This document shows, piece by piece, positions 1 through 420 of a DNA stretch of 420 nucleotides. Positions within the stretch are counted from its first letter, which is position 1. Every line of letters begins with the position of its first letter. The notes beneath the pieces were generated by a model that was not told the DNA's origin, did not search any database, and saw only the letters and a program-made list of their open reading frames with translations. Both the position numbers and the translations under genes were made by a program. This DNA comes from Escherichia coli. GTDB taxonomy: Bacteria; Pseudomonadota; Gammaproteobacteria; Enterobacterales; Enterobacteriaceae. The stretch is from the NCBI RefSeq assembly GCF_003334255.1, contig NZ_QOWU01000245.1; one strand, written 5' to 3'.

Positions 1-1
1 T

Positions 2-420
2 TTTGAAGGTCAGTCCGGCATTGAGGCCGGGCTGGCGGATGAATTAATCAATGCGTCGGATGCCATCAGTGTGATGGCCACGGCGCTGAACAGTAATGTC
101 AGAGGAGGCACTATGCCGCAATTAACTGCAACGGAAGCCGCCGTGCAGGAGAACCAGCGAGTGATGGGGATCCTGACATGCCAGGAAGCGAAAGGACGTG
201 AACAGCTTGCCACGATGCTGGCAGGGCAACAGGGCATGAGCGTTGAACAGGCCCGGGCGATTCTGGCCGCGGCGGCACCGCAGCAGCCGGTGGCATCCGC
301 GCAGAGTGAAGCCGATCGCATTATGGCGTGTGAAGAAGCGAACGGTCGTGAACAACTGGCGGCAACGCTGGCGGCGATGCCGGAGATGACGGTGGAAAAA
401 GCCCGCCCGATCCTGGCGGC
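2..420 (+). CDS. C: Lambda-like minor capsid protein C / prohead protease (S49 peptidase family), C-terminal portion; partial at both ends (no start or stop in window)
   Basis: Frame 2 on the + strand is open across all 139 codons in the window. The translation has the lambda C-protein C-terminal character as recalled from memory (GLADEL..DAI.VM segment, then RxMGIL.CxEAxGRE...GMxVxxARxILAA). Codon usage is enterobacterial-like (CTG Leu, GCG/GCC Ala, CAG Gln). The minus-strand ORFs overlap each other in different frames and translate to Cys/Ala/Ser-rich low-complexity peptides typical of antisense reading of a GC-rich gene. The homology assignment is from memory and was not searched. Confidence 0.8.
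103..108 (+). promoter_or_regulatory. Shine-Dalgarno ribosome-binding site (AGGAGG) for the internal ATG at 113
   Basis: Exact AGGAGG hexamer at 103-108, extendable to AGAGGAGG (101-108), ending 4 nt upstream of ATG 113. It lies within coding sequence, where it also encodes Arg-Gly-Gly. Confidence 0.6.
113..420 (+). CDS. Nu3: Nested in-frame scaffold protein (lambda Nu3-like capsid assembly/scaffolding protein), 3'-partial; same frame as the enclosing C-like ORF
   Basis: ATG at 113-115 is preceded by a near-consensus Shine-Dalgarno AGGAGG (103-108) with a 4 nt spacer, inside a continuous ORF. This mirrors the known lambda arrangement in which Nu3 is translated from an internal in-frame start in the 3' part of gene C. 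The N-terminus MPQLTATEAA.. follows a ..RGGT junction, similar in position to the lambda ..GGR-MTKE.. junction as recalled from memory. Confidence 0.6.
   Translation, partial: MPQLTATEAAVQENQRVMGILTCQEAKGREQLATMLAGQQGMSVEQARAILAAAAPQQPVASAQSEADRIMACEEANGREQLAATLAAMPEMTVEKARPILA
158..418 (+). repeat. Intragenic tandem duplication of a ~35-38 aa protein module (copy 1 about nt 158-271, copy 2 about nt 317-418), diverged at nucleotide level
   Basis: Copy 1 RVMGILTCQEAKGREQLATMLAGQQGMSVEQARAILAA aligns with copy 2 RIMA---CEEANGREQLAATLAAMPEMTVEKARPILAA. Shared pattern is R[VI]M..C[QE]EA.GREQLA..LA....M[ST]VE.AR.ILAA with a 3-codon indel. The offset is about 150-159 nt. The copies are separated by an Ala/Gln/Pro-rich linker (AAPQQPVASAQSEAD). 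Confidence 0.6.

Follow-up and report, generated by a model that had tools for sequence, protein, structure and literature searches.

Identity and domain organization of the gene

The 420-base stretch of DNA analyzed here (hereafter, the window) contains one long open reading frame: an ORF scan finds frame 2 of the plus strand to be free of stop codons over positions 2-420, and the remaining five frames are broken by stops, their longest ORF being one of 103 aa on the minus strand. The open frame extends beyond both ends of the window, and its 139 aa translation, which opens with FEGQSGIEAGLADELINASDAISVMATALNSNVRGGTMPQLTATEAAVQENQRVMGILTCQEAKGREQ, shows significant similarity to PHROG 53 (phrog_53, 'head maturation protease'; E-value 3.8e-33), phrog_8940 ('capsid assembly protein'; E-value 3e-28) and PHROG 8399 (phrog_8399, 'head scaffolding protein'; E-values of about 1.1e-23 to 1.9e-23). 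The full gene was recovered from a 100%-identical locus of Escherichia coli ATCC 11775 (L003), in which the window corresponds exactly to positions L003:20001-20420, within a coding sequence (L003:19210-20715) that is labelled 'S49 family peptidase' and encodes 501 aa; this full-length protein matches PHROG 53 with an E-value of 3.6e-229. Positions 2-420 (plus strand) thus represent codons 265-404 of 501 in a protease/scaffold fusion gene, an assignment that is based on the open frame, the exact-match CDS, and the relationship to phage 21 gene 5 and lambda gpC. Taken together, these data confirm that the window comes from the interior of a gene for a head maturation protease fused to a scaffold, which is of the phage 21 gene 5 type and homologous to lambda C; the match to a C/Nu3-type gene is far above the chance level. 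The original prediction, made from the letters of the window, of a C/Nu3-type protease-scaffold gene is accordingly borne out by the PHROG families, the Pfam S49 domain, and the 54% identity of the 501-aa protein to lambda gpC (over 412 aa, E-value 8e-142). This identification is correct but ordinary: the gene and the cluster to which it belongs are already known, and their annotation dates back to the sequencing of the phage 21 head operon.

The peptidase domain (Pfam PF01343, Peptidase_S49) occupies residues 146-293 of the 501-aa protein (E-value 6.3e-35). Given that window base 2 begins codon 265, positions 2 to ~88 (plus strand) encode the C-terminal end of this SppA-like domain, residues 265 to ~293, so that just its ~29 final residues fall in the window. 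The structures of SppA from Bacillus subtilis and E. coli align to residues 77-290 (HMMER against PDB, E-value 3.8e-16), and the alignment to the B. subtilis protein (3rst), which also delimits the domain in the window, stops at residue 290. In these HMMER alignments, Ser162 coincides with the serine of the SppA 'AASGG' motif, and the position of the SppA general-base lysine is occupied by Tyr209, not by a lysine; hence the nucleophile serine alone is assignable by homology.

The nested scaffold gene and its repeat modules

Downstream of the peptidase domain lies an internal Shine-Dalgarno sequence, AGAGGAGG (window positions 101-108, plus strand; core AGGAGG at 103-108), which in the long frame reads as codons for Arg-Gly-Gly, is evident from direct reading, and is annotated as a ribosome-binding site in both M81255 and OL657228. 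It is followed after 4-5 bases by an ATG (113-115) that is in frame with the long gene and opens a nested scaffold gene, the counterpart of phage 21 gene 6 and homolog of lambda Nu3, of which codons 1-102 of 200 lie in the window (113-420, plus strand). This assignment follows from both phage 21 records and from PHROG 8399: the CDS denoted '6' in M81255 (5475-6077) maps from window position 113 onward, and OL657228 labels the nested CDS 'scaffolding protein'. Thus, gene 6 together with its ribosome-binding site is annotated in two independent records, and in both of them the 200-aa scaffold protein is co-terminal with gp5.

The arrangement AGGAGG-N5-ATG is retained in phage 21, PhiR12_2_star and lambda (nt 5342, CAGGAGGGCGAATG) despite different flanking sequences, and the homologous site of the gene typified by that of E. 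coli A34 has GAGGA-N8-ATG. This conservation of the internal Shine-Dalgarno sequence and ATG across four lineages is in line with the predicted in-frame start at this position. In the lambda RefSeq record (NC_001416.1), the start of nu3 is placed at 5132, within the S49 domain and without a Shine-Dalgarno sequence; the lambda site that is homologous to the start of phage 21 gene 6 is 5342, the sole one with the conserved AGGAGG-N5-ATG. The reference annotation of nu3 is probably ~70 codons too long. Biochemical work reportedly put the N-terminus of Nu3 at the downstream site.

The scaffold part of the protein consists of three tandem modules of ~45 aa each, which span L003:20149-20580 in ATCC 11775 and were delineated by pairwise scores and by a repeat HMM. 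Copy 1 (ENQRVMGILTCQEAKGREQLATMLAGQQGMSVEQARAILAAAAPQQ; gp5 residues 314-359) lies entirely in the window at 149-286; copy 2 (residues 367-409) begins at 308 and is cut by the window end at 420, whereas in full it would reach ~439; and copy 3 (residues 414-457) is located outside the window, all three on the plus strand. Aligned pairwise, the three copies and the lambda module score 12-22 standard deviations higher than shuffled sequences (z of 12-17 among the three copies themselves), and the repeat HMM assigns the three copies domain E-values of 6e-27 to 4e-26. The cores of these repeats are marked as 'Tri boxes, function unknown' in M81255, a GenBank record from the 1990s: the 'Tri1 box' maps to window positions 180-283, inside copy 1, and the second Tri box maps to 320-430, with its start in copy 2. 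A search for direct DNA repeats in the gene with a 9-base seed detects none, and the triplication is visible only in the protein and in gapped DNA alignment.

The HMM built from the copies finds three modules in genes of the phage 21 type, one in lambda (L004:5486-5623, NC_001416.1) and four in the E. coli A34-type gene (L011:4113-5753). In the latter, copies 2-4 are 86-96% identical to each other at the DNA level, suggesting recent tandem amplification. Among the records of the phage collection, 20 contain the full three-module scaffold and about 80 records of the lambda type match one module only. This variation of the module copy number (1, 3 or 4) among relatives is the one mildly interesting point to emerge from the analysis of this gene.

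Sequence searches of the scaffold part against Pfam, NCBIfam and PDB (the last with residues 302-501) yielded no match. In a single-sequence AlphaFold2 model, the scaffold is extended and helical throughout; the mean pLDDT is 63.6 and the pTM 0.30, and the pLDDT climbs to 78-88 in module 1. With the moderate confidence that this model affords, each module is predicted to form a helix-loop-helix, i.e., a long helix followed by a short one. Judging solely from the position of the modules and this predicted shape, one could speculate, doubtful as the idea is, that they are independent docking units for the capsid protein and/or the portal, with the copy number as an evolvable dial; if so, the number of modules would tune the valency of the scaffold and the assembly of the procapsid.

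Several other candidate features in the window were considered and discarded. OL657228 annotates two 'CII binding sites' of the form TTGYN6TTGY that fall on the minus strand of the window, at 118-131 and 352-365. These are two matches in 420 bp compared to 0.11 expected; over the 17.6-kb left arm of phage 21, the same two are the only matches, with 2.8 expected. No sigma-70-like promoter (-10/-35) accompanies the two sites in the window, and the motif is absent from the divergent A34-type homolog. We therefore regard these sites as chance matches and reject CII-activated antisense promoters. Likewise, the one terminator-like hairpin detected, at 419-403 of the minus strand, does not exceed the chance level, and an Rfam search yielded no match near threshold, the best one scoring 17.7 bits against a gathering threshold of 35.

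Genomic context and origin of the sequence

The neighborhood of the gene was reconstructed from identical and near-identical sequences elsewhere, with the names of the neighbors (portal, decoration, major capsid, etc.) adopted from the annotation of the respective records. The genes are arranged in the order small terminase, large terminase, W-like joining protein, portal, protease/scaffold gene, decoration, major capsid, FI, FII, tail. In the phage 21 records (M81255, OL657228), cos is located upstream of the terminases, gene 6 is nested in gene 5, and shp, encoding a D-like decoration protein, comes next; BLASTp links the left arm in OL657228 to lambda Nu1 through J. The same order of head genes recurs in three E. 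coli chromosomes in which the window is present unchanged (those of ATCC 11775, strain 120899 and ETEC-2265), in a ~77%-identical prophage of E. coli A34, and in a contig of a metagenome-assembled genome (MAG), JAIJJM010000092.1, that also contains an exact copy. Thus, the proposed location of the window inside a lambdoid head-morphogenesis cluster holds for all inspected loci with an exact or 99%-identical match, and the genes that were anticipated on both sides, i.e., terminase, portal and connector upstream, D-like and E-like genes downstream, are present in every related record inspected. The flanks of the related loci consist of phage structural genes and the translation belongs to a phage family.

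In M81255.1, the portal gene 4 (L001:2990-4582) carries the name 'head-tail preconnector gp5', the same as gene 5. This label is a slip that could mislead automated transfer of annotation.

By megablast, many E. coli chromosomes contain a sequence 100% identical to the window. Altogether, 1,867 of the 5,426 complete E. coli genomes (about 34%) contain a match, 1,864 of them covering at least 80% of the window, and at least 80% of a 7.2-kb query that extends from the small terminase to the major capsid gene is present in 1,871 of the same 5,426 genomes. Comparison of the latter two numbers (1,864 and 1,871) indicates that the window is practically never found apart from the complete head cluster. 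A genome can contain up to five such places, and 2,910 of the 2,918 places are chromosomal, as fits a prophage. Eleven records denoted 'plasmid' also contain a match; most of these are 150 kb to 1.4 Mb in size, and such large records are likely to be pieces of chromosomes.

A scan of one genome per species produced a single exact match, in a MAG assigned to 'Collinsella sp.'. In this 7,693-bp contig (JAIJJM010000092.1, L008), the exact copy occupies positions 707-1126 on the minus strand; the contig carries genes for the small and large terminase, portal, protease and decoration protein, and its head cluster is collinear with that of the E. coli prophage at 95%. Most likely, this is a mis-binned enterobacterial prophage contig in a species-representative genome.

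Integrase, the immunity region, and the lysis and att features were examined in one exact-match genome, that of the E. coli type strain ATCC 11775 (NZ_CP033092.2). Here, the exact copy is part of a prophage of ~47 kb, with an integrase/excisionase pair adjoining ompW at one end and tail-fibre genes at the other. The late operon is in the lambda order (terminase, head and tail genes; L003 14993-38885), and between these two parts are located genes for an exonuclease, dicB, ydfABC, CI/Cro-type regulators, RusA, an antiterminator, three tRNA genes, and a lysis cassette consisting of holin, a frameshifted lysozyme, and lysis protein. The 3' end of ompW is duplicated: 53 bp at 94% identity are found at ~2,683,906 and ~2,730,986, about 47 kb apart, and the ompW 3' fragment marks the right end of the element. 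Judged by its sequence, this duplication has the appearance expected for the attL/attR of a phage that integrates at the 3' end of a gene. The expectation that a chromosomal copy would be a prophage, to be recognized by an integrase and att repeats, is therefore in agreement with the location of 2,910 of the 2,918 places, and in ATCC 11775 with the presence of the integrase, the excisionase, and the att-like repeats.

In addition to the phage core functions, this prophage contains several genes that are likely cargo. These include the hokD toxin (L003:5145-5300); a DNA methyltransferase followed by one tRNA-Ile and two tRNA-Arg genes (L003:8572-9920); DUF1398 and ynfO, on the opposite strand between the lysis and terminase genes (L003:13905-14606); a Lom/Ail-family outer-membrane protein (L003:34443-35042); and a SAM-dependent methyltransferase among the tail-fibre genes (L003:38940-39608).

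The lysozyme gene of ATCC 11775 (rrrQ) is frameshifted at L003:12300-12834, and pseudogene fragments are present near the tail-fibre end of the element, which is otherwise complete. Given the frameshift, this particular copy may be lysis-defective, and the ATCC 11775 prophage may be unable to lyse its host. Together with the few genomes that have partial matches to the 7.2-kb head cluster, these defects lend some credence to the possibility that the source of the window is a remnant prophage, cryptic or defective, which retains the head cluster but no longer forms particles. We nevertheless consider a remnant somewhat unlikely: the reading frame in the window is intact, strains 120899 and ETEC-2265 have undamaged lysozyme/lysis genes and a full set of intact head genes, ATCC 11775 itself keeps the integrase, excisionase, regulators, antiterminator, terminase, head and tail genes along with the att-like repeats, and near-identical phages have been isolated as viable particles.

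A further possibility is that the source is a free phage 21-like genome, from a virion or an induced phage, or a viral or metagenomic contig, with the same gene and neighbors but without attL/attR. The phage collection includes 19 Escherichia phage records that are 94.5-99.3% identical to the window, phage 21 (M81255.1 and OL657228.1, 99.0%) and its relatives (99.0-99.3%) among them; several of these phages were induced from ECOR strains, and the exact copy on the 7.7-kb MAG contig can be taken in the same sense. However, the collection contains no phage isolate that is 100% identical to the window, the best match being at 99.3%, whereas all the 100% matches that were found sit in bacterial assemblies and the places in E. 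coli are chromosomal with the eight exceptions implied by the above count; a free phage is thus quite improbable as the source.

Finally, derivation from a cellular S49 peptidase of the SppA/SohB type, a satellite, a gene transfer agent, or another non-lambdoid element is a practically negligible alternative: notwithstanding the homology of the peptidase domain to SppA, the protein scores far under the NCBIfam cut-offs for the cellular families (110 bits against 155 for the SppA family TIGR00706, 68 against 311 for TIGR00705, and 38 against 259 for SohB), its C-terminal 200 aa are a phage scaffold domain, and all the contexts are complete lambdoid head-tail clusters.

The best explanation, to which we assign a probability of roughly 0.95, is that the window is a piece of the gene for the head protease/scaffold of a lambdoid phage of the phage 21 type, which most probably resides as a prophage in the chromosome of E. 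coli or a closely related enterobacterium. The window and about 40-50 kb around it are then phage 21-type lambdoid prophage DNA, so that nearby non-structural genes should be read as cargo or morons. Given that this element is very common and often present in several copies per genome, it is also a likely source of confusion in assembly and binning. No new biology is implied, and the value of the identification lies mainly in bookkeeping.

Proposed head assembly and comparison with known systems

Under the reading of the window as part of a phage 21-type head gene, a single frame would give rise to two products, namely the 501-aa protease/scaffold protein, which combines an N-terminal region with the S49 serine peptidase domain and, at the C-terminus, the scaffold domain, and a 200-aa scaffold protein made by internal translation. 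Because the scaffold begins at an internal in-frame ATG, its sequence is that of the C-terminal part of the protease. If the analogy with lambda holds, the shared scaffold domain would allow both products to co-assemble with the portal and the major capsid protein into a procapsid, such that a few molecules of the protease would be delivered together with many molecules of the scaffold; thereafter, and ahead of DNA packaging, the protease would eliminate the scaffold as well as itself. These steps of assembly and proteolysis are extrapolated from the literature on lambda, according to which B (portal), C (protease) and Nu3 (scaffold) form an initiator for assembly of the capsid protein E, the interactions C-Nu3, Nu3-Nu3, Nu3-B and Nu3-E have been reported, and C is thought to degrade Nu3 before packaging (PMC3224144). 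Both C and Nu3 are essential in lambda (PMC10695390).

The closest known relatives are genes 5 and 6 of phage 21 (M81255.1, 'head gene operon', and OL657228.1), with 99.0% DNA identity over window positions 1-417. The frame, the internal ribosome-binding site and ATG, the three 'Tri' repeats, and the neighbors are all the same as in the gene represented in the window, and the differences amount to five substitutions in 420 bases, three of which change the protein (V312A, A364T and A373V) and two of which are silent. Phage 21 gp6 is 95% identical to the full scaffold of the exact-match locus, indicating that the part beyond the window is more diverged from phage 21.

SppA (PDB 3rst, 4kwb, 3bf0) shares the S49 fold family with the protease by sequence, and the nucleophile serine motif is aligned. 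In contrast to the protein described here, which scores below the SppA cut-offs and is encoded among phage genes, SppA has no scaffold domain.

The scaffolding protein of P22, gp8, docks to the capsid protein by a small C-terminal helix-turn-helix hairpin. The predicted helix-loop-helix modules could at most work alike; this is a resemblance only, and no sequence similarity to gp8 was detected, with no PDB match for residues 302-501. Furthermore, the scaffold of P22 is a protein without a fused protease, and its molecules are reused instead of being broken down.

Homology to lambda C extends along the entire protease and includes the scaffold module. With lambda C/Nu3, the gene also has in common the nested in-frame arrangement, with AGGAGG-N5-ATG just past the peptidase domain, as well as the place between the portal gene B and the genes for decoration (D) and capsid (E). 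The two differ in the scaffold itself: lambda has one module, with another linker and another C-terminal tail, whereas the gene described here has three.
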